IMG/VR virus record: IMGVR_UViG_3300021255_002126
Coordinates: 4,253-68,252 of that record
DNA: 64,000 bases
Direction: 5' to 3' (one strand)
Source: a virus
Below the pieces are notes generated by a model that saw only the letters and a list, made by a program, of their open reading frames with translations, searched no databases and had not been told where the DNA came from. The stretch's first letter is position 1, and the number at the start of each line of letters is the position of its first letter. The translations under genes were made by a program, and so were the position numbers. Below are positions 1 to 47,965 of the stretch, piece by piece.

Positions 1-128
1 GAACTGCTTTCCGCATTTCTCGCAGACATACACATCAACGCCTTCGTTGCGACCATCATACATTTTTGCAGATTCTATGCCGGCAACCTTTTCATCGTAC
101 TTTTGTTTTAACTCTGTTGTTTTCATAA

Positions 129-407
129 TTATTTGTTTTTAAGTTCTTCAACAAGTGCATCTGCTTGCTCGACAGCAAGTTTTGCAATAGTCTCTCTATT
201 ATAATCTATACTACCAAAGAAATTCATCACTCCTTGCATAGCGGCTATGGCTGCCTGTATTCTAACACCTTGCCATTGGTCTGGAAGTTGTATTATGTGG
301 TTTTGAAACTCACATTCTTTTTCTCCATCGGATGTCCTGTAGTGGCAATCCATTGTGCAATCCTTACATTTCATAATCATTTCTTTAATTGTTTTGTTTT
401 TAATCAT
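129..407 (-). CDS. Hypothetical phage protein
   Basis: ORF with common phage motif AAIAAMQG...A.LAVEQADALVEELK. Confidence 0.7.
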   Translation of the reverse strand: MIKNKTIKEMIMKCKDCTMDCHYRTSDGEKECEFQNHIIQLPDQWQGVRIQAAIAAMQGVMNFFGSIDYNRETIAKLAVEQADALVEELKNK

Positions 408-651
408 CAGATATAAGTGCTTGCACCATGAGTTTAAACACTCCCAAATCTAACTTTTCAAGTAGCACACTTGTTGCTCTCCTGCTGTTAGGAGTATAGT
501 GCCATACTATCTTTACTGTCCATCTATCAACGAACACATCTAAGAGACTATCTTCAATATTCTTGGTAAAGACATCTCTAGGAAACTCTGCATCTCTCTC
601 ATACTTATACTCTTCTGAGAGCAGATAATCTTTTAATTCTTCTCTTTCCAT
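400..651 (-). CDS. Hypothetical protein
   Basis: 83-aa ORF packed against neighbour. Confidence 0.6.
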   Translation of the reverse strand: MEREELKDYLLSEEYKYERDAEFPRDVFTKNIEDSLLDVFVDRWTVKIVWHYTPNSRRATSVLLEKLDLGVFKLMVQALISDD

Positions 652-671
652 AGTTGTATAGTTTTTATTAG

Positions 672-1258
672 TGGACTCTGAGAGAATCGAACTCTCATCT
701 ATAGACTACCACACTATGTTACCATAGCCAAACAATTCGTTACAAGACACAATGCCGAGTAACTACATTTTCGGTTTACACAACCTCGGATTTTCAACCC
801 TATTGTTTGTTGTGGTCTGGACTGTCTCTTTACCATATTGAAATTCTTGCAAGATATAACAACATATCACAATCTGTCAAAACTCCATGTGTTATAAATT
901 TCAACTTAGGTATCTCCCGTTTGGCCTCTACACGATTATGAGAAATCAAGCCCCTATCTTGCCTGAATTATTTCGTCATACGGGTCCTACACTCAATGCC
1001 TACACGCGTATTATTTCAACATTTTCGTTTTTATAGTAGGATTCTCATTTTCGCTCGGTATTGTCCTCACACATTATTGATTAGTGTTGTTTGCTCCATC
1101 TTAGGATTCACACCCTTCTTATACGCAACGCATATTAGGTTATACCAATGAAGACTTAATTAAGGATTTCCACCGAATTTAGGAGATTCTACATAGGGAT
1201 TTCTCGCCCATGCACTCTTTTCATGAGTCTATATGTTCTACCATTGAACTAAGAGTCC
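672..1258 (-). tRNA. Intron-split tRNA, probable anticodon CAU (Met or Ile2); exons ~1223-1258 and ~672-708
   Basis: 5' exon GGACTCT-TA-GTTC-AATGGTA-GAAC-A-TATAGA-CTCAT; 3' exon TCTATA-GAT-GAGAG-TTCGATT-CTCTC-AGAGTCC-A; acceptor, D, anticodon and T stems all pair. Confidence 0.85.
709..1222 (-). ncRNA. Group I intron (tRNA-type, no homing endonuclease ORF)
   Basis: P1 CAU/GUG, P2 CAUGGG/CCUAUG, P3 AUCUCC/GGAGAU, AAAUUCGGUGGAAA core, P7 segments GUAGAGGCC and AAGAGACAGUCC, P9.0-like ACCACA/UGUGGU; 3' splice site uncertain by a few nt. Confidence 0.85.
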
Positions 1259-1360
1259 AAGTTGCCCCTACGCTTAGGGGCCAGAAATGAATATATAGTA
1301 ATAAACACTAAGAAAAAGACCCTCTCGGGCATCATATAAGAAACTATAATACAATAACTA

Positions 1361-1450
1361 TGGAGGGTAGAGGGGAGACTCGAACTCCCAACCCAACGTG
1401 TTCAACGTCGCTCTGCCTATGTGCTTACACCGCACTTGAGTTACTCTCCC
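1361..1450 (-). tRNA. Atypical tRNA-Phe(GAA)-like gene with a hairpin inserted in the D-loop
   Basis: GGGAGAG/CTCT(A)CCC acceptor, CGACG-TTGAACA-CGTTG anticodon arm, GGGAG-TTCGAGT-CTCCC T arm, encoded CCA. Confidence 0.7.
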
Positions 1451-1498
1451 TACATGCAAAACAAAAATTTAACGCGACAGCCCTCTCGGGTTTACCTT

Positions 1499-1756
1499 CT
1501 ATCTCACTTCGTCAGAGTCACATACAAGCACATCTCCCACAATAATGTCGTAACCACAAAGTTCCGTAGCCTTGATGTTTATGGGCAATCCATTTACCTT
1601 GCCCTCTTCGTTCACTACCATGATTCTATTGCCTGATAGAGTGACTATCTCTATGTAACCACCGACTATCTTTTTCAATTCTTCAAGTTTGAAATCACGC
1701 CCGTTCTTTGGCTGTGTTTCAATCTTTTGTCCGTCTGCTTTGAAAATTGTTGCCAT
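1499..1756 (-). CDS. DUF3846 family protein
   Basis: LEELKKIVGGYIE...VNEEGK..LPIN..AT motif. Confidence 0.8.
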   Translation of the reverse strand: MATIFKADGQKIETQPKNGRDFKLEELKKIVGGYIEIVTLSGNRIMVVNEEGKVNGLPINIKATELCGYDIIVGDVLVCDSDEVR

Positions 1757-1767
1757 ATTCCCAATCT

Positions 1768-1974
1768 TTACATACTTGCTTTCCAAAATTTAACTATCTC
1801 TAATCCTGTGTAGAACTTACGACCATTAGACTTCCTGTGCTGACAATTTATGCCAGTAGGGCCAACGTTCGTATGTCTTCTTAGCGTATTCCGATGGCAT
1901 CCAAGTATTTTGGCTGCCTCTCCAATACTGAACCTTGCAGTAGGAGAAACCTTCGGCTCTTCGTTGACCATCAT
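1768..1974 (-). CDS. xis: Excisionase / MerR-like HTH DNA-binding protein
   Basis: FSIGEAAKILGCHRNTLRR HTH; small, basic, divergent from integrase across attP. Confidence 0.75.
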   Translation of the reverse strand: MMVNEEPKVSPTARFSIGEAAKILGCHRNTLRRHTNVGPTGINCQHRKSNGRKFYTGLEIVKFWKASM

Positions 1975-2192
1975 TGCTCGTCGTCTTTGATTGGAACATA
2001 TTTAGAGACGCAGTATGCCGCGCAAGCGAAGTTGACTACCGCTATTGATGTGAGTACGAGATTACCTCCGCACACTCCCAATGCCACGAATGACAATCCA
2101 AACCATGCAGAAATAGCCTTCTGCTTTAATGACTTACTATCCCATTGTACTGACTCCTTCCAAAGGGACCACAAATTCTTTGTTTCTTTCAT
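1971..2192 (-). CDS. Small membrane protein
   Basis: Two hydrophobic segments; starts in AAGAGCAATG motif. Confidence 0.65.
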   Translation of the reverse strand: MKETKNLWSLWKESVQWDSKSLKQKAISAWFGLSFVALGVCGGNLVLTSIAVVNFACAAYCVSKYVPIKDDEQ

Positions 2193-2215
2193 TGCTCTTG
2201 CCTTTTAGATGATTA

Positions 2216-2572
2216 TTACCAATACCTGCAGTTCCTCCACAGGTAATCTTTAAACTCTCTTTCTTCTTCAAAATCGTTCAGCGCCTCGGTATGGATAGAC
2301 CACCAATCCGGCATCATACCTGTTATGGTGGACTTAAGCAAAGGAGATTCGTGACCATTGCTATGAATGACATCAACCTCGCACTTTCCATTGCTATACA
2401 TCGTGATTTCAATAAGTCCAGACTCGCACTCGTAAACCAACCTTGCAACGGAATTTGTCAAACACTCCTCGTAAATTTCCTTTTCCATGCTCTCGACGAG
2501 AAAATCAAGGAACTTGGAAATGCCTATCCTGTCGGTGGCACCTTCTCCATGTCTTTTTATTCCTGTATTCAT
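2216..2572 (-). CDS. Hypothetical protein
   Basis: 118-aa ORF downstream of TAnnTTTG boxes. Confidence 0.65.
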   Translation of the reverse strand: MNTGIKRHGEGATDRIGISKFLDFLVESMEKEIYEECLTNSVARLVYECESGLIEITMYSNGKCEVDVIHSNGHESPLLKSTITGMMPDWWSIHTEALNDFEEEREFKDYLWRNCRYW

Positions 2573-2643
2573 TTTCTTTCGATTTTTGTTGCGGCACTGA
2601 AACTTTCTTTGTATCTTTGCGCCGTTAGTATAATATGGTAATG

Positions 2644-2690
2644 CAAAGGTACAAAAAATATTTAGAAAAATCTAAGAATAGTCTTAGAAA
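2644..2690 (-). promoter_or_regulatory. Promoter of xis operon with palindromic operator
   Basis: TACCTTTG at 2644-2651 (minus); inverted repeat TCTAAGA-ATAG-TCTTAGA at 2671-2688. Confidence 0.55.
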
Positions 2691-2761
2691 TATCTACTTA
2701 TAAATAAAATTTAACATTTGACAGGGAGTTGTGGTCCGAGGGGGGAAACCGAAAAAAGTGA

Positions 2762-3017
2762 AAATAACGTGCAAAAGCAAAATGTCGGTTTTGTAATTCG
2801 TTGGGAATTAGTGCTTTGCATCGCAAGGGTGCACGCCTGGAAAGCGTGTAATCGGCGAAACCGATTCGGGGGTTCGAATCCCCCTCTCTCCGCTGAAACG
2901 CAGGGAAACAAAGGGATTCTGAACGCTCACCATGATGGTTGGGCGTTCTTGGTTTTGAACAACTTTGCACCATTTTGATGCTTTCTGCACAAATAAACGT
3001 GCAAATAACGTGCAAGT
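2762..3017 (+). repeat. Integrase arm-type binding repeats (AATAACGTGCAA)
   Basis: Copies at ~2762-2775 and tandem at ~2991-3017 flanking the att core. Confidence 0.7.
2831..2893 (+). other. attP core = 3' two-thirds of tRNA-Ser(GGA)
   Basis: GCACGCCTGGAAAGCGTG...GGGGGTTCGAATCCCCCTCTCTCCGC; 5' acceptor strand and D arm missing; adjacent to integrase. Confidence 0.9.
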
Positions 3018-3022
3018 AAAAT

Positions 3023-4237
3023 ATGGCAACTACTAAACTTTATCTGGACACAAGAGCCACTAAGAGAGGCGAAACAGCACCTCTAAAGTTGCGCATTACG
3101 AAAAATGGGGAGGCAGGGTTTATCCCTCTACACATCCGTGTGCTTCCGAGTCAATGGGACAAAGAGCATGGTAAAGTAAAAGATAACCCGAACAAGACAT
3201 CTATAAATGCTTACATTCAGAGTCAGAAGCAGAGAATTGATAATATCCTTCTAAAACTGACCTCTGAAGGTCGTCTCGCAAATATGTCTGCCGTGCAAAT
3301 CAAAAATCTCATCTTGGAACTTCTCAATCCGAAAAACAACGATAAGTCGCTTTTCCTAAACCGCTTCAAAGGTTATATGGAAACGAGGCAGAAGGAGCGT
3401 ACCCGTGACCTTTACCTGCAGACCTATAAACGCATTACGCAGTTCGACACGAAAGCCGGACAACTGTCCTTTGAGCAGATCGGCAAGGACTGGCTCACGC
3501 GATTCGATAGGTTCCTGATGGAATTTGAGCCTTCGCAGAACTCCAGGAGTATCCACTTCCGAAATATCCGTGCCGTATTCAACGACGCTATAGACAACGA
3601 CATTACCACATCTTATCCATTCCGCAAGTTTATGGTAAGACCTGTGCCTACAGTCAAGCGAGCATATAGCATAGAGAGACTGAGGGAACTTTTCAACTAC
3701 CCCGTGCTTCCTCATCAACAAAAATATGTAGATGTGTTTAAACTAATCTTTTATCTCGTTGGAATCAATCTTGTAGACCTCTGTAACCTAACTAAAATCG
3801 ATGATGGGAGAATAGTGTATCAACGCTCCAAAACATCACGTCTATATAACATCAAAGTGGAACCCGAGGCACAAGAAATCATAGACCGATACCGAGGAAC
3901 AAAGAAATTGCTTAACATTGCCGACAAGTTCAAAAACGTACATACATTCACAAGCACAGTCAACAGGGCATTAAAACAAATTGGAACCCGAGAGCATGTG
4001 GTCACTAATGGAAGAAAACAACTTGTCTATCATTCTGCTTTCCCCGACCTCTCTACCTATGTGGCCAGACACACATGGGCTACCATCGCCTACGAACTGG
4101 AGATACCTAACGAGACGATAGCAGCCGCCCTCGGCCATTCTTTCGGCAATAGGACAACTGCTATCTACATAGACAAGGACATTCGTAAGGTTGACGAAGC
4201 CAACCGCAAAGTCATTGATTACGTTCTTGGACTATAA
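3023..4237 (+). CDS. int: Tyrosine integrase (Bacteroidetes arm-binding + SAM-like + catalytic domains)
   Basis: KLYLDTR...PLKLRIT N-terminus; YVARHTWAT, LGHS, TAIY catalytic motifs. Confidence 0.95.
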   Translation: MATTKLYLDTRATKRGETAPLKLRITKNGEAGFIPLHIRVLPSQWDKEHGKVKDNPNKTSINAYIQSQKQRIDNILLKLTSEGRLANMSAVQIKNLILELLNPKNNDKSLFLNRFKGYMETRQKERTRDLYLQTYKRITQFDTKAGQLSFEQIGKDWLTRFDRFLMEFEPSQNSRSIHFRNIRAVFNDAIDNDITTSYPFRKFMVRPVPTVKRAYSIERLRELFNYPVLPHQQKYVDVFKLIFYLVGINLVDLCNLTKIDDGRIVYQRSKTSRLYNIKVEPEAQEIIDRYRGTKKLLNIADKFKNVHTFTSTVNRALKQIGTREHVVTNGRKQLVYHSAFPDLSTYVARHTWATIAYELEIPNETIAAALGHSFGNRTTAIYIDKDIRKVDEANRKVIDYVLGL

Positions 4238-27522: not shown

Positions 27523-27538
27523 CTTCTTTCTTCTTTTG

Positions 27539-27611
27539 AGCGGAGAAATGGATTCGCACCATTGGCCTCTGTCATGGAACTGGCAGCGCTCTACTCCTGA
27601 GCTATCTCCGC
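27539..27611 (-). tRNA. Atypical tRNA-Gly(UCC)-like gene
   Basis: GCGGAGA/TCTCCGC acceptor with U73, GCTC/GAGC D stem, AATGG-TGCGAAT-CCATT T arm, irregular anticodon arm containing TTCCA. Confidence 0.7.
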
Positions 27612-44720: not shown

Positions 44721-46785
44721 TCTTCAACATTTTACTATATTTTTCAATAACTTCTTTATTCGTGGCATATTTACCTAACTCTCCTTCATAAGCGAGATAC
44801 GATGACGTACAATGCTCTTTCACCTTTGTATAGACACCACGATACTTCATGCTGACAGGTTTGTGCGTATAGGCACATGAGATAACTCTCTCACAAAGTT
44901 TGTGCATACGTCTGCTTAGTTCTTTTTGAACGCCCGCTGTCTGCAAACAAAGCAATATCAGTTTGGCAAGTCTCGGTACGTTATTGTTCGTACAAAAGTC
45001 TGTCAGTTGGAACAAATCATATCCCTTGTGTTGAGGTAGGGTGAAACCGAATCCACCAAGCGTGTACTTCTCATACATTACCACAAAAGCATAAGTACAA
45101 TGCGACACAGTGTCTACTTTTCGGATATACTTCTTTTGCAAGGCATAAAGGTAACCAGAGTCCACTCTCGCTATCTTCAGACTATTCGGGTTGTCGATAA
45201 CCAAATCATCTGGTGGTACAATCTCATTAACCTCTATATGATTCGACTTGTATGATGTGTTGACTTGGTTGCTTTCACACTTCTTGTTGCAATACAAAAA
45301 ACGTCCAGCCGACCATCTCTCTCCCCTTGAAGAGTTCCACATTGCCAACTTGTGCATGTTCCTCAAATACGGACTATTACTGAAATAGTAGAAGTACGAG
45401 TCTTTTGGCAACGTCTCTATTATCTCATAGTAATCGTTGCGCTTAACGTCGAACTCCATTTCCAAGTCACTGTTCTCAGAAATCAACTTGAACGTGCGCT
45501 TCTGAGTCTTATCCTTGCCGTAATTGAAGAATATAACCTTCTCTTTCGGTATCGCGTCTTGCAAGGTGCCAACATGATACTCGCAAGTTGTAAGCAGGTT
45601 CAGCAATCGTTCGCTGCCCTTCTCGGTTTTCTCGATGGACTCTTTGGCACGCATCTTTACCGATTCTATAACTGCTTCATTCCTCTTTGAGTCGCTCATG
45701 GAGAACTTCTGCAACTTTTCGGCATACAATGCTAAAGCAAGTTGCCGAGATGGGGTGTCATTATTAAAGTCTTCCAACCACGATAACTTGTCCCTGTATT
45801 TGAGAGTAATCTTTCCGTTTGCTACCATCCACAGCAAATGGCAATACGGATCTTGCGCATAGATAGACAACTTCACCTTGTCCATGAAGAACAACTCGTA
45901 ATAATACATAAAACCATTCACTATGCAAAGTTTCTTATGGCCATGACTCTTGACCGCTTCCCACAATGCAGACGCTTGCTTCGAGTTATAGGGCAGAGAT
46001 TTGGTCTGGAACGTCTCTATTGCACTATAGGGGTTTCCTTGATAAAGGAGCGGCACTAACTCCGCTGGTGTGCCGTATTTGAGGTCTATAATCCTCAAAA
46101 ATTGCTCATAAGAAGATATGGATTTAAAGTCCTCCAATTCATGGTTTACCGCATAATAAAACATCCTGTATGTTGACAGAACGCAATTCATGGCTTCGTT
46201 ATAGTCGTTCGTACCATGATATGTTCTAAACTCAATCGTCTTGGTCTTGAAATATGCCGAGATATTTACCGCATGCCTTATAAACCCTTTCTTGGACTGA
46301 TTCGTGAACAACTTGTTAATATCCTCATACGTCTCGGCCTCGAGCAAACCATTGTAATACTTTTCCGTAGGAAGCGGCTGACAATTAAAGATGAGTTCAT
46401 CCCAATCAGACAACTTCGTGTATCTCTTGAAATACGGATAGCACAAGTAGAAAAACAACCATACCTTTTTTATCTGCTCTACCGTCAGATCTCCTGCGTA
46501 TATATGAACATGAGTGTAGGTAGTCCATTTTATCAAACCTCCAGCATCTCTCATTGAGTCATATACCGCTTTAAGGTTTTTTCTATCTTTTGCACTATAA
46601 ACACATAAGGGAGGGGTGTTTACTTCCCCTCCGAAACGCTTATTACACGAACCATCGGTATTTACAATCTCTTCATCTTTGCTCCATGAGAATCCATCCG
46701 GCAGACTAACCAACTGCCTGTCGAGGTTGCACATTTCAATCTCGATACCAAAGGTTCTCGTTTTCAAATCTTCTCCTATTTTCAT
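44710..46785 (-). CDS. Amidoligase (COOH-NH2 ligase) fused to degenerate methyltransferase-like and GNAT-like domains
   Basis: TFGIEIE, EVNTPPL, HVHI, TIEFR amidoligase motifs; C-terminal TDF...RLAKLIL...AYTHKPVSMKYRG (domain names for middle and C-terminus are less certain). Confidence 0.8.
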   Translation of the reverse strand: MKIGEDLKTRTFGIEIEMCNLDRQLVSLPDGFSWSKDEEIVNTDGSCNKRFGGEVNTPPLCVYSAKDRKNLKAVYDSMRDAGGLIKWTTYTHVHIYAGDLTVEQIKKVWLFFYLCYPYFKRYTKLSDWDELIFNCQPLPTEKYYNGLLEAETYEDINKLFTNQSKKGFIRHAVNISAYFKTKTIEFRTYHGTNDYNEAMNCVLSTYRMFYYAVNHELEDFKSISSYEQFLRIIDLKYGTPAELVPLLYQGNPYSAIETFQTKSLPYNSKQASALWEAVKSHGHKKLCIVNGFMYYYELFFMDKVKLSIYAQDPYCHLLWMVANGKITLKYRDKLSWLEDFNNDTPSRQLALALYAEKLQKFSMSDSKRNEAVIESVKMRAKESIEKTEKGSERLLNLLTTCEYHVGTLQDAIPKEKVIFFNYGKDKTQKRTFKLISENSDLEMEFDVKRNDYYEIIETLPKDSYFYYFSNSPYLRNMHKLAMWNSSRGERWSAGRFLYCNKKCESNQVNTSYKSNHIEVNEIVPPDDLVIDNPNSLKIARVDSGYLYALQKKYIRKVDTVSHCTYAFVVMYEKYTLGGFGFTLPQHKGYDLFQLTDFCTNNNVPRLAKLILLCLQTAGVQKELSRRMHKLCERVISCAYTHKPVSMKYRGVYTKVKEHCTSSYLAYEGELGKYATNKEVIEKYSKMLKNGK

Positions 46786-47864
46786 GTAGTCGCATATAAA
46801 TGGTCTATATATCTTTCTGCTCCAAGTCTAAGCACAGTACGCCCTTCTTTTCGGAAATCAATACCGAGCGCTGTTCCTGCCAAGTCTATAAGAGAGGTTG
46901 CTATTGGCACATTAACTCCAACTCGATTCGCTATGCTCTCCATCAGAACAAGGCCCTGCGACACGTCTTCCGTGATGTATCTCGAATGAATAGAGGTTGG
47001 ACTGATAGCCCTGTCGCTCGATTCCGAATATTCATAGAAACTCTCCATGCCTTTGAGAAAACCTCCAGCCTCCAACACGTCAATGGGTCTTCCTCCAAGT
47101 GCTTTCAATACATTCATCTTCTCTTCATCCAACTGGAACATCACTCTTAGCGTTGCATCATTCTTGTGGCAATATGCCTCACGATACATGCAAAAGTTTC
47201 CGTCGCTATACTCTATTCGAGGGATGCTCATGATGGCTCCAACGGTGTGTATCACCAAGTTCGGATTGAGCAAAGCAGACTCGATAGGGGAGTAGTCGTT
47301 ACTGAGACCTTTGTACAGGGATTTCAATTTCTTCATACATTCCTTCTCATAACTTTTATTAAAGACGGACAAAGGACTCCGCGTAAGACGGCAACCAACT
47401 CTAAATACAACCTCATCCGGCTTGTCGTTTAATTCTACACGTCCTTCAAGGTATGGGCCAGTTGCTTCTGCTATGGCAGGGAATGATATATGGCAACTTT
47501 CTTGGCATTGCTTCAACAAATAGAAAGAAGAGAGGTAACTGCAAACGATTAGCACCGTCTGCTCATCTTTGATGTATTTTGACACCTTCCTATACAACTC
47601 CTTATGGTAGGTGCTTTGGATAGTAACTATGACAACATCGGCATCACGCACCTTACTAAGGTCATGCGAGACATCTTGAATGGTTGTCTCGGTGTATTTT
47701 CCATCTTCTTTCAAATACATCCTATTGCCGTTCCTTATAAGCCTATCCAAAGATTCAGATTTCGTTCCAGAGGTTTTTATCAAATCCACTTCATGACCAC
47801 CAATAGATAAGTCGGCCGCTATTGCCATGCCGACATTTCCCGTTCCTAATATTGCTACTCTCAT
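46782..47864 (-). CDS. NAD/NADP-dependent opine (octopine/nopaline) dehydrogenase
   Basis: ILGTGNVG Rossmann motif; LLNPNLVIH, LDEE, SRYITEDVSQGL motifs. Confidence 0.9.
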   Translation of the reverse strand: MRVAILGTGNVGMAIAADLSIGGHEVDLIKTSGTKSESLDRLIRNGNRMYLKEDGKYTETTIQDVSHDLSKVRDADVVIVTIQSTYHKELYRKVSKYIKDEQTVLIVCSYLSSFYLLKQCQESCHISFPAIAEATGPYLEGRVELNDKPDEVVFRVGCRLTRSPLSVFNKSYEKECMKKLKSLYKGLSNDYSPIESALLNPNLVIHTVGAIMSIPRIEYSDGNFCMYREAYCHKNDATLRVMFQLDEEKMNVLKALGGRPIDVLEAGGFLKGMESFYEYSESSDRAISPTSIHSRYITEDVSQGLVLMESIANRVGVNVPIATSLIDLAGTALGIDFRKEGRTVLRLGAERYIDHLYATT

Positions 47865-47886
47865 TTCAATGATTGTTTTAATCTTG

Positions 47887-47960
47887 TTGCGGAAGTGGGA
47901 CTCGAACCACACGACCTCTACGTTATGAGCGTAGCGAGCTGCCTACTGCTCCATTCCGCT
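47887..47960 (-). tRNA. tRNA-Met(CAU), partly initiator-like
   Basis: AGCGGAA/TTCCGCA with 1:72 mismatch, GAGC/GCTC D stem, CTACG-CTCATAA-CGTAG, TTCGAGT T loop. Confidence 0.85.
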
Positions 47961-47965
47961 ATCTC

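Follow-up and report, generated by a model that had tools for sequence, protein, structure and literature searches.

The stretch of DNA analyzed here, the window, is 64,000 nucleotides (nt) of a gut phage (positions 4,253 to 68,252 of the 68-kb IMG/VR virus record IMGVR_UViG_3300021255_002126, completeness estimate 91%), and its minus strand carries a tRNA gene whose two halves are separated by a group I intron. This intron belongs to an oversized family of phage tRNA introns, and its splice junction differs from that of all 14 canonical relatives aligned with it. The explanation that we favor, with moderate confidence, is a recently crippled or retasked CAU-type tRNA gene holding a nearly intact group I ribozyme that would splice at U1223|G1222 and G706|U705. 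The parts of the gene are as follows, in window coordinates.

1223–1258, minus strand: tRNA 5′ exon, from G1 at 1258 to U36 at 1223, read directly from the sequence
706–1222, minus strand: group I intron of 517 nt, with first base G1222 and last base G706 under the putative, ribozyme-consistent splice sites
672–705, minus strand: tRNA 3′ exon, read directly and found by ARAGORN with introns allowed; the same sequence in L002, the twin described below

Read from G1258, the 5′ half consists of acceptor strand GGACUCU, U8, A9, a D stem of 4 base pairs (bp) with loop AAUGGUA, A26, UAUAGA, and CUCAU ending at U1223; the Rfam tRNA model matches it in part (1211–1258, 15.8 bits). The 3′ half (705–672) runs from U705 through UCUAUA (the 3′ strand of the anticodon stem), the variable loop GAU, the T arm GAGAG-UUCGAUU-CUCUC, and the acceptor 3′ strand AGAGUCC to discriminator A672, and no CCA is encoded. 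The 6-bp anticodon stem and 3-nt variable loop pointed out in the initial annotation are both present. Its description of tRNA halves about 515 nt apart (515–518 nt, depending on the choice of splice sites) with group I core elements between them was likewise borne out by direct reading of the sequence, by alignment to the group I model RF00028, and by pair counts in 16 sequences. The insert was also rightly said to hold no endonuclease open reading frame (ORF), as the largest ORFs overlapping it have 40 amino acids on the same strand and 44, 49, and 51 amino acids on the opposite strand.

Across the whole window, the split gene was missed by ARAGORN in default mode and by Rfam at gathering scores. 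When introns were allowed, ARAGORN found the halves, and its call for the window shifted from Thr(CGU) in one run to Lys(UUU) in another, with L002 called Tyr(GUA) under other intron bounds; since the call depends on the bounds set, the program was dropped as a judge of the junction. Of the 22 viral tRNAs that share the acceptor 3′ strand and T-loop motif, 12 have the loop CUCAUAA, 4 a UUU anticodon, and 6 another or an unclear loop; a CGU loop occurs in none. This indicates that the tRNA body is of CAU type and that the Thr(CGU) call is most reasonably put down to chance. On sequence evidence, the gene thus appears to be CAU-type (Ile2/Met-like), with the intron directly after the third anticodon base. 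When an uninterrupted copy of the anticodon arm was sought by pattern, more than 100 stretches came up, and all 117 matches examined were chance matches in coding or other DNA, none of them a tRNA; exact scans with each exon for such a copy returned L002 alone. Purifying selection on the exons was not usable as an argument, because the absence of changes in 70 exon bases between the window and L002 is expected anyway from the few differences in their alignable core of about 300 nt.

The structure of the intron was written on an alignment of 16 sequences (the window, L002, and 14 canonical relatives) and comprises P2, P3, P4, P5, a conserved P5 hairpin, P6/P6a, P7, P8, a P9.0-like helix, and a GUAA-capped P9 hairpin. 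With the P3/P7 pseudoknot included, 96.1% of 997 cells in P2–P9 were paired, compared to 34–41% when the partners were slid by one to three columns. Compensatory changes on both sides were found in 23 of 64 pairs, and none of 500 shuffles reached any of the five measures. The elements are listed here in the 5′ to 3′ direction of the minus strand.

1213–1218, minus strand: internal guide AGAGUG, in which GUG (1215–1213) would pair with exon CAU (1225–1223) as P1, with U1223:G1215, and AGA (1218–1216) with UCU (705–703) as P10
1192–1212, minus strand: P2 hairpin CAUGGG/CCUAUG, its loop containing GAAA; pairing in 100% of cells, compensatory changes in 5 of 6 pairs
1182–1187, minus strand: P3 5′ strand, partner 917–912; 96.9% paired, three compensatory pairs
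1054–1177, minus strand: P4–P5 domain, with P4 at 1177–1172 and 1059–1054, P5 at 1166–1162 and 1068–1064, and the conserved hairpin at 1087–1069
933–1053, minus strand: P6/P6a with a variable insert, pairing 1053–1051 with 935–933 and 1048–1042 with 944–938; five compensatory pairs
922–928, minus strand: P7 5′ strand G-A-GGCCA, from the family alignment
832–911, minus strand: P8 with a variable loop, pairing 911–909 with 834–832 and 904–897 with 845–838; 100% paired
819–831, minus strand: J8/7 (831–825) and P7 3′ strand CAGUCC (824–819), within a 20-mer exact in viral and bacterial relatives and within the profile match at 836–810
708–816, minus strand: P9 domain, closed by the P9.0-like helix ACCAC (816–812)/GUGGU (712–708), with the GUAA-capped hairpin at 727–714
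706–707, minus strand: A707-G706, the sole bases between the P9.0 helix and the 3′ strand of the anticodon stem

The P5 peripheral extension of the window aligns with that of one relative, L014. The P9.0-like helix shows one compensatory change, C-G to U-A in L132, and the ACCACA/UGUGGU pairing that had been proposed earlier is present. The G-binding G-C pair beside the bulged A in P7 (columns 448/628) is G-C in all 16 sequences. P7 had been suspected of being weakened, and it is, by two mismatches found in the window copy only: the distal bases C923 and A922 stand opposite A823 and C824 (C/A and A/C), and the window is the 1 sequence in 16 that is unpaired there. The strand reads G-A-GACUG in L002, whose P7 is perfect, and in 12 of the 14 relatives outside the window/L002 lineage. 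Besides the G-binding pair, two other P7 pairs survive in the window, one being G:U, as it also is in L136. At columns invariant in all other sequences, private changes number one in the window, in P7, and zero in L002, and thus the core is not generally decayed.

A covariance-model check suggested with the initial annotation gave a divided answer. Searching the whole window with RF00028 returned nothing at the gathering score, and a search of positions 1–3200 returned nothing up to E 10; in a search of 611 nt, the model aligned over its full length at 799–1236 with 19.4 bits (E 0.014), below the gathering score of 50. The shortfall is explained by long peripheral inserts. A compact relative with the same 20-nt J8/7-P7-P9.0 core, L013, scored 63 bits against the same threshold.

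Relatives were found by several routes. A 25-nt exon probe retrieved one twin, L002, which matches the window in its exons, at both junctions, and in all core blocks (about 98% identity in the alignable core) and differs from it in the peripheral loops. An exact 20-nt probe from the J8/7-P7-P9.0 core retrieved 13 viral stretches in IMG/VR (L002–L014), and junction-pattern scans added further relatives in IMG/VR and in metagenomes (JGI). Across those two collections, the CAU-specific junction pattern gave canonical CAU-type relatives and L002 only, L140 being a chance match. Among INPHARED phages, blastn in distant mode with positions 640–1300 found no match, so the family is absent there at that sensitivity. 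ARAGORN with introns allowed, run on 19 family regions, called Leu(UAA) in six, Met(CAU) in five, Arg(UCU) in one, and Ile(UAU) in one (L006, which we read as Arg(UCU)), made no call in four, and was incoherent for the window and L002. The oversized intron family thus occupies the anticodon loops of phage tRNA-Leu(UAA), tRNA-Arg(UCU), and tRNA(CAU) genes.

The same 20-mer core is exact in 18 bacterial contigs, 16 of which hold an intron-split tRNA by ARAGORN: Arg(CCU) in three (two Bartonella and one Saccharibacter) and Leu or Met in the rest. We read the Cytophagales-type, Spirosoma, and Arcicella introns as sitting in initiator-type tRNA(CAU). A profile of 11 bacterial tRNA introns, searched with nhmmer, matched the window in three collinear blocks (1210–1160, 933–905, and 836–810, the last with E 7.7e-7). 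Classical bacterial settings of such introns are Leu.3Ug, Arg.5Ug, fMet.2Ug, and Ile2.5Ug, all filed under IC3 (Williams 2020), and the IC3 label used here for the window intron comes from that classification plus sequence homology. Together, the relatives, the covariation, and the bacterial profile matches show that the group I intron is real, has no ORF, is of the IC3 tRNA-intron type, and belongs to an oversized phage branch.

Where the window departs from its family is the splice junction. All 14 canonical relatives follow one rule: the 5′ exon ends in a U whose partner is a G lying five bases ahead of P2 (four bases in L013), with P1 forming three of three pairs in that register; the three bases 5′ of that guide G pair as P10 with one to three of the first three 3′-exon bases; and the intron ends in the helix GUGGY (GUAGC in L132), two bases, and then a G, a layout shared by those bacterial introns for which the 3′ end is shown. 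The three bases after the P9.0 helix are A-R-G in the relatives, followed in the CAU-type ones by A37 A38. Neither the window nor L002 follows this rule. Their third base after the helix is U705, compared to G in 14 of 14 relatives (alignment columns 857–870), and in the family register their P1 forms two of three pairs, with U1223 opposite G1217. Alignment with L137 and L139, which read GUGGUAG[GAA]UC, shows that the window lacks the three bracketed bases, corresponding to omega-G, A37, and A38. Measured against the setting Ile2.5Ug (loop CUCAU/AA), the 5′ side CUCAU| therefore fits, and the 3′ exon is without A37 and A38. The guide is changed as well: the lineage has AGAGUG instead of AUUGUGUG, in the context GAAAA-GAGUG versus ...AUU-GUGUG in CAU-type relatives, and the P2 sequence of the window is that of L137. 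This scar, a loss plus a guide change common to the window and L002 only, is specific to their lineage and not part of the family design, and the split of that lineage from the canonical relatives may be recent.

In IMG/VR, the pattern of a P9.0 helix followed by A-G and then a base other than G returned L002 and two damaged introns only, both with a loop one base short. One of these, L144, is without a guide and has a small ORF in P9; the other, L145, is without the intron 5′ half and has a duplicated P8′-J8/7-P7′ module. A further relative ends loosely at position 702 in a DNA run (X1) and reads helix GUGGU-AG and then UCUAAGCAGU.... It fits tRNA-Arg(UCU) only if the intron lies between U33 and U34 with its terminal G one base past the helix, possibly a working short spacer.

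Under the reading that we favor, GTP would attack after U1223, held by P1 CAU/GUG with U1223 and G1215 as a U:G wobble next to P2. The homologous omega position holds U705, and G706, one base upstream and the sole G outside the P9.0 helix at the 3′ junction, could take that role. The freed 5′ exon would then attack after G706 while P10 UCU/AGA holds the 3′ exon, so that the ligated exons CAU-UCU would lie on the continuous guide AGAGUG. The initial annotation was right that splicing by U and then omega-G gives no 7-nt CAU loop, since G706, the only usable G, yields CUCAU|UCUAUA. Of its three options for the junction, the one it favored, with the 3′ exon from 705, is the only one fitting U:G, a terminal G outside P9.0, and P10; an 8-nt loop with the 3′ exon from 708 is not consistent with that combination.

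Splicing in this way is predicted to yield a cloverleaf of 70 nt with two bases too few in the anticodon arm. When five candidate ligated products were folded (the rival ligated-exon sequences, set against CAU|UCU, being CUCAUAG, CUCAUUAG, and CUCGUAG), the acceptor, D arm, and T arm were normal in all. The rule-obeying 70-nt product can form a 6-bp stem closed by the loop CUCAU; opening the top pair of that stem leaves 5 bp and the loop ACUCAUU. Its variable loop has 3 nt. None of the junctions that combine U at −1 with a G lying outside P9.0 leads to U33 together with a purine at 37, as a canonical elongator tRNA would have, and it is unlikely that the spliced RNA reads AUA or AUG codons. 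For this reason, the gene has most likely been crippled or retasked recently.

Several observations weigh against this explanation. ACUC (1228–1225) can compete for the guide by forming four Watson–Crick pairs with GAGU (1217–1214), which is the standard register of the family and would place C-G at the cleavage site. The CAU/GUG P1 sits 2 nt nearer P2 than in 14 of 14 relatives, and G706 lies 1 nt, not 2 nt, past the P9.0 helix. The AGA/UCU match is partly inherited, given that GAGUG is the usual guide of Leu- and Arg-type introns and only A1218, in one of the three pairs, is lineage-specific. With its added U-A pair at the foot of the anticodon stem, plus A26:G44 and A15:U48, the arm comes out as a regular stem of 5 bp and loop of 7 nt, which looks more orderly than simple decay. 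Finally, the evidence from RNA consists of assembled contigs, which show presence and nothing more, and no joint of exon to exon (1223 to 705–709) was among the 15 of 24 joints listed, so that the splice sites are inferred only.

Within those limits, the intron body is present in RNA libraries: contigs identical to 824–1191 occur in three metatranscriptome runs from two studies, and one RNA contig identical to 678–835 spans the 3′ junction, with intron and 3′ exon still joined, and stops 6 nt short of the tRNA end. The contigs of the three RNA runs give no depth over 1221–1400 (5′ exon and upstream) and almost none over 600–680, whereas those of the DNA run cover both. Such a gap would be in keeping with efficient 5′ cleavage and speaks against DNA carry-over, but we did not count it as evidence, because it is a lack of coverage by assembled contigs and because loose ends of relatives occur at 1217. 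In RNA runs X2 (loose end 707) and X3 (loose end 1217), the last bases of a Leu-type relative (...GUGGUAAG) are joined directly to its first bases (AAUGGAAAUUUGAGUG...), and its unspliced 5′ junction is present separately in RNA contigs. This joint resembles that of an intron RNA circularized at full length or of a tandem copy.

The strongest alternative, which we nevertheless regard as unlikely, is a dead end in which the ribozyme, having lost omega-G and had its guide changed, no longer completes splicing and performs at most the first step or hydrolysis, leaving a pseudogene with a selfish intron and no mature tRNA-like product. A U at the homologous omega position and the two P7 mismatches confined to the window are what one would expect of it, the other A-G-only introns in IMG/VR (L144 and L145) are clearly damaged, the RNA contig still joins intron to 3′ exon, and the phage has another CAU tRNA (47886–47961) and another short-loop tRNA. 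However, L002 keeps all invariant core columns and a perfect P7, and one consistent splice could make use of a U:G pair, a terminal G, and a P10 of 3 bp. The relative from the DNA run, with helix-AG and then UCUAA, also fits a normal Arg(UCU) loop if its G is omega, so that a one-base spacer may work.

We consider it improbable that non-canonical splicing yields a functional tRNA(CAU) with an anticodon stem of 6 bp and the loop CUCAUAG, which comes from one of the junctions suggested by the initial annotation; either the 3′ site would lie after U708, without an omega-G, or the 5′ site would lie after A1224, with G709 as omega-G. If A707 and G706 are kept, positions 26–48 span 23 nt, as in the intronless relative L164, and a 6-bp stem with a 3-nt variable loop is a workable tRNA design, as in tRNA-Pyl. 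Such splicing, however, requires a U at omega, or an A at −1 without guide pairing, and G709 lies within the covariation-supported P9.0 helix. The resulting loop is self-complementary (C32-G38 and U33-A37), as in all products keeping A707 and G706, and folds into an 8-bp stem with a 3-nt loop. Positions 37–38 are AA in 12 of 12 CAU tRNAs that have no intron and share the acceptor 3′ strand and T-loop motif, and in 6 of 6 CAU-type relatives aligned.

Two further proposals start from the loop ACUCAUU. The three-base loss and the guide change could have been co-adapted, the ribozyme being re-aimed by AGAGUG to join CAU to UCU and the arm re-registered by the extra U-A to a 5-bp stem with that loop, which would make a novel phage tRNA, be it a UGA suppressor in a phage with the standard code or a non-decoding tRNA mimic. 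We think this very improbable; if it were true, it would be a natural case of a group I ribozyme shifting its own splice sites to remodel its host RNA. We give slightly less credence still to the U1223|U705 product working as a tRNA whose central UCA reads UGA, i.e., a splicing-dependent opal suppressor. The regular 5-bp stem and 7-nt loop and the possible A26:G44 and A15:U48 tertiary pairs speak for it, but C at 33 and U at 37 are both very unusual in tRNA and the tRNA body is of CAU type. A passage of the preprint by Borges et al. notes that TGA suppressors can occur in standard-code relatives of recoded gut phages. In the window, 25 of 86 greedy gene calls end at TGA as an ordinary stop; most of these 25 stops lie in ATGA-type start/stop overlaps, with no pattern of long in-frame extensions. 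Recoding of TGA in this phage was rejected on that ground and on a coding density of 91% under code 11.

Least probable of all, and hardly credible, is a tRNA-Thr(CGU) with the intron between 34 and 35 (5′ site after C1225, with C-G in the standard P1 register, and 3′ site after G710): ARAGORN with -i0,700 does give it a cloverleaf and an intron of 515 nt, ACUC/GAGU is stronger than any other P1-like pairing and lies in the standard register, and 72 bacterial Leu.3Cg introns have C-1:G (Williams 2020; untested), but other intron bounds change the call, G710 is paired within P9.0, the junction has no P10, the loop is self-complementary like CUCAUAG, and 0 of the 22 look-alike tRNAs have a CGU loop. 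As for the purpose of the intron, no analysis gave any support to the earlier idea that splicing gates tRNA production or shields the tRNA from anticodon nucleases.

Among known systems, the closest in position is the intron of Azoarcus sp. BH72 pre-tRNA-Ile(CAU) (IC3, Ile2.5Ug), which has the same type of host gene, the same 5′ insertion point after U36 of CAU, and no ORF. Its layout, P1 CAU/GUG with the guide directly by P2, matches the window, and the likeness to Azoarcus drawn in the initial annotation, with P1 abutting P2 in a CAU-type phage tRNA, is supported. The Azoarcus intron is about 205 nt long, versus about 517 nt for that of the window, which differs further by large P5, P6, P8, and P9 extensions, a phage setting, a 3′ exon without the initial A37 A38, and a U at the omega-homologous base. 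The oversized phage introns in CAU, Leu-UAA, and Arg-UCU tRNAs (L003–L014 and L132–L139) share the P2–P9 architecture of the window and nearly identical conserved blocks, but the 14 of them aligned all have one guide register, helix plus 2 nt plus G, and canonical 7-nt loops, unlike the window and L002, and the P7 mismatches are in the window alone. Alphaproteobacterial tRNA-Arg(CCU) introns (Arg.5Ug) and Cytophagales initiator-tRNA introns (fMet.2Ug type) have the exact 20-nt core, the P3/P4 and P7/P3′ blocks, and the P10-P1-P2 layout of the window; they differ in being compact (226–305 nt), in sitting in other tRNAs, and in having canonical junctions (P9.0, 2 nt, and G where the 3′ end is shown). 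Proteobacterial Leu.3Cg introns depart from the U:G rule (Williams 2020), and ACUC/GAGU in the window would likewise place C-G at the cleavage position. In Leu.3Cg, however, the C-G pair still yields a canonical tRNA-Leu loop, while the window offers no such junction without cutting inside P9.0.

Other tRNA-related loci of the phage were noted on the same strand. An intergenic tRNA at 27538–27611, the second tRNA gene with a non-standard loop in this phage, has normal acceptor, D, and T arms and, by ARAGORN, a stem containing a C/A mismatch below the 6-nt loop GUUCCA ("anticodon tc"); if the stem is taken as 5 bp, the loop has 8 nt. The intact tRNA(CAU) at 47886–47961 (Rfam, 54.7 bits) has a D arm like that of Cytophagales initiator-type tRNAs, and its 5′ part overlaps the end of an ORF at 46782–47912. 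Just upstream of the split gene, a tRNA-like element at 1362–1452 has a perfect T arm, GGGAG-UUCGAGU-CUCCC, and a possible GAA anticodon arm, but its D arm and acceptor are poor; only in pseudogene mode does ARAGORN report it, as a 67-nt Phe(GAA), and Rfam detects the T arm only. At 1263–1281, and just upstream of the tRNA in L002, a G+C-rich hairpin is followed by ACUU, which abuts G1. The two hairpin sequences are unrelated, and the arrangement may be a processing or terminator signal.

The family itself showed further variety. Tandem duplications of the P7-P3′-P8-J8/7 module with differing P8 inserts occur in L012 (1–300) and L145, which suggests recombination between family members. One locus, L004, holds two separate family introns, 2293–2849 and 496–1055, both on the minus strand. 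In L005 (2094–3312), a family intron of 1,160 nt in tRNA-Leu(UAA) has in its P6 region an insert that codes for a protein, probably a homing endonuclease; the window copy is without such an insert. In L141 (about 404–440, minus strand), the guide and P2 directly follow an acceptor/T-arm minihelix, GUAGUAU-GAGG-UUCGAAU-CCUC-AUACUAC, and not an anticodon loop. Phage contigs with an intron-split tRNA-Leu also hold transfer-messenger RNA (tmRNA) genes in large tRNA arrays (L003 6341–6705, L007 6555–6905, and L010 8967–9376; Rfam 133, 70, and 61 bits).

According to a passage of a 2014 review, all phage group I introns then known lay in protein genes despite the many tRNA genes of phages, in agreement with the statement of the initial annotation that such introns are mostly known there. 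Full-text literature searching found no paper on group I introns in phage tRNA genes, and the two together suggest that the oversized family is undescribed in print. Standard tRNA finders and Rfam miss or miscall such genes, which distorts inventories of phage tRNAs. The window copy amounts to a natural "experiment" in which a nearly intact ribozyme has had its omega-G, P10 partner, and P1 register all changed, and it bears on how far IC3 ribozymes tolerate shifts of splice-site register and on whether an intron may outlive the function of its host gene.

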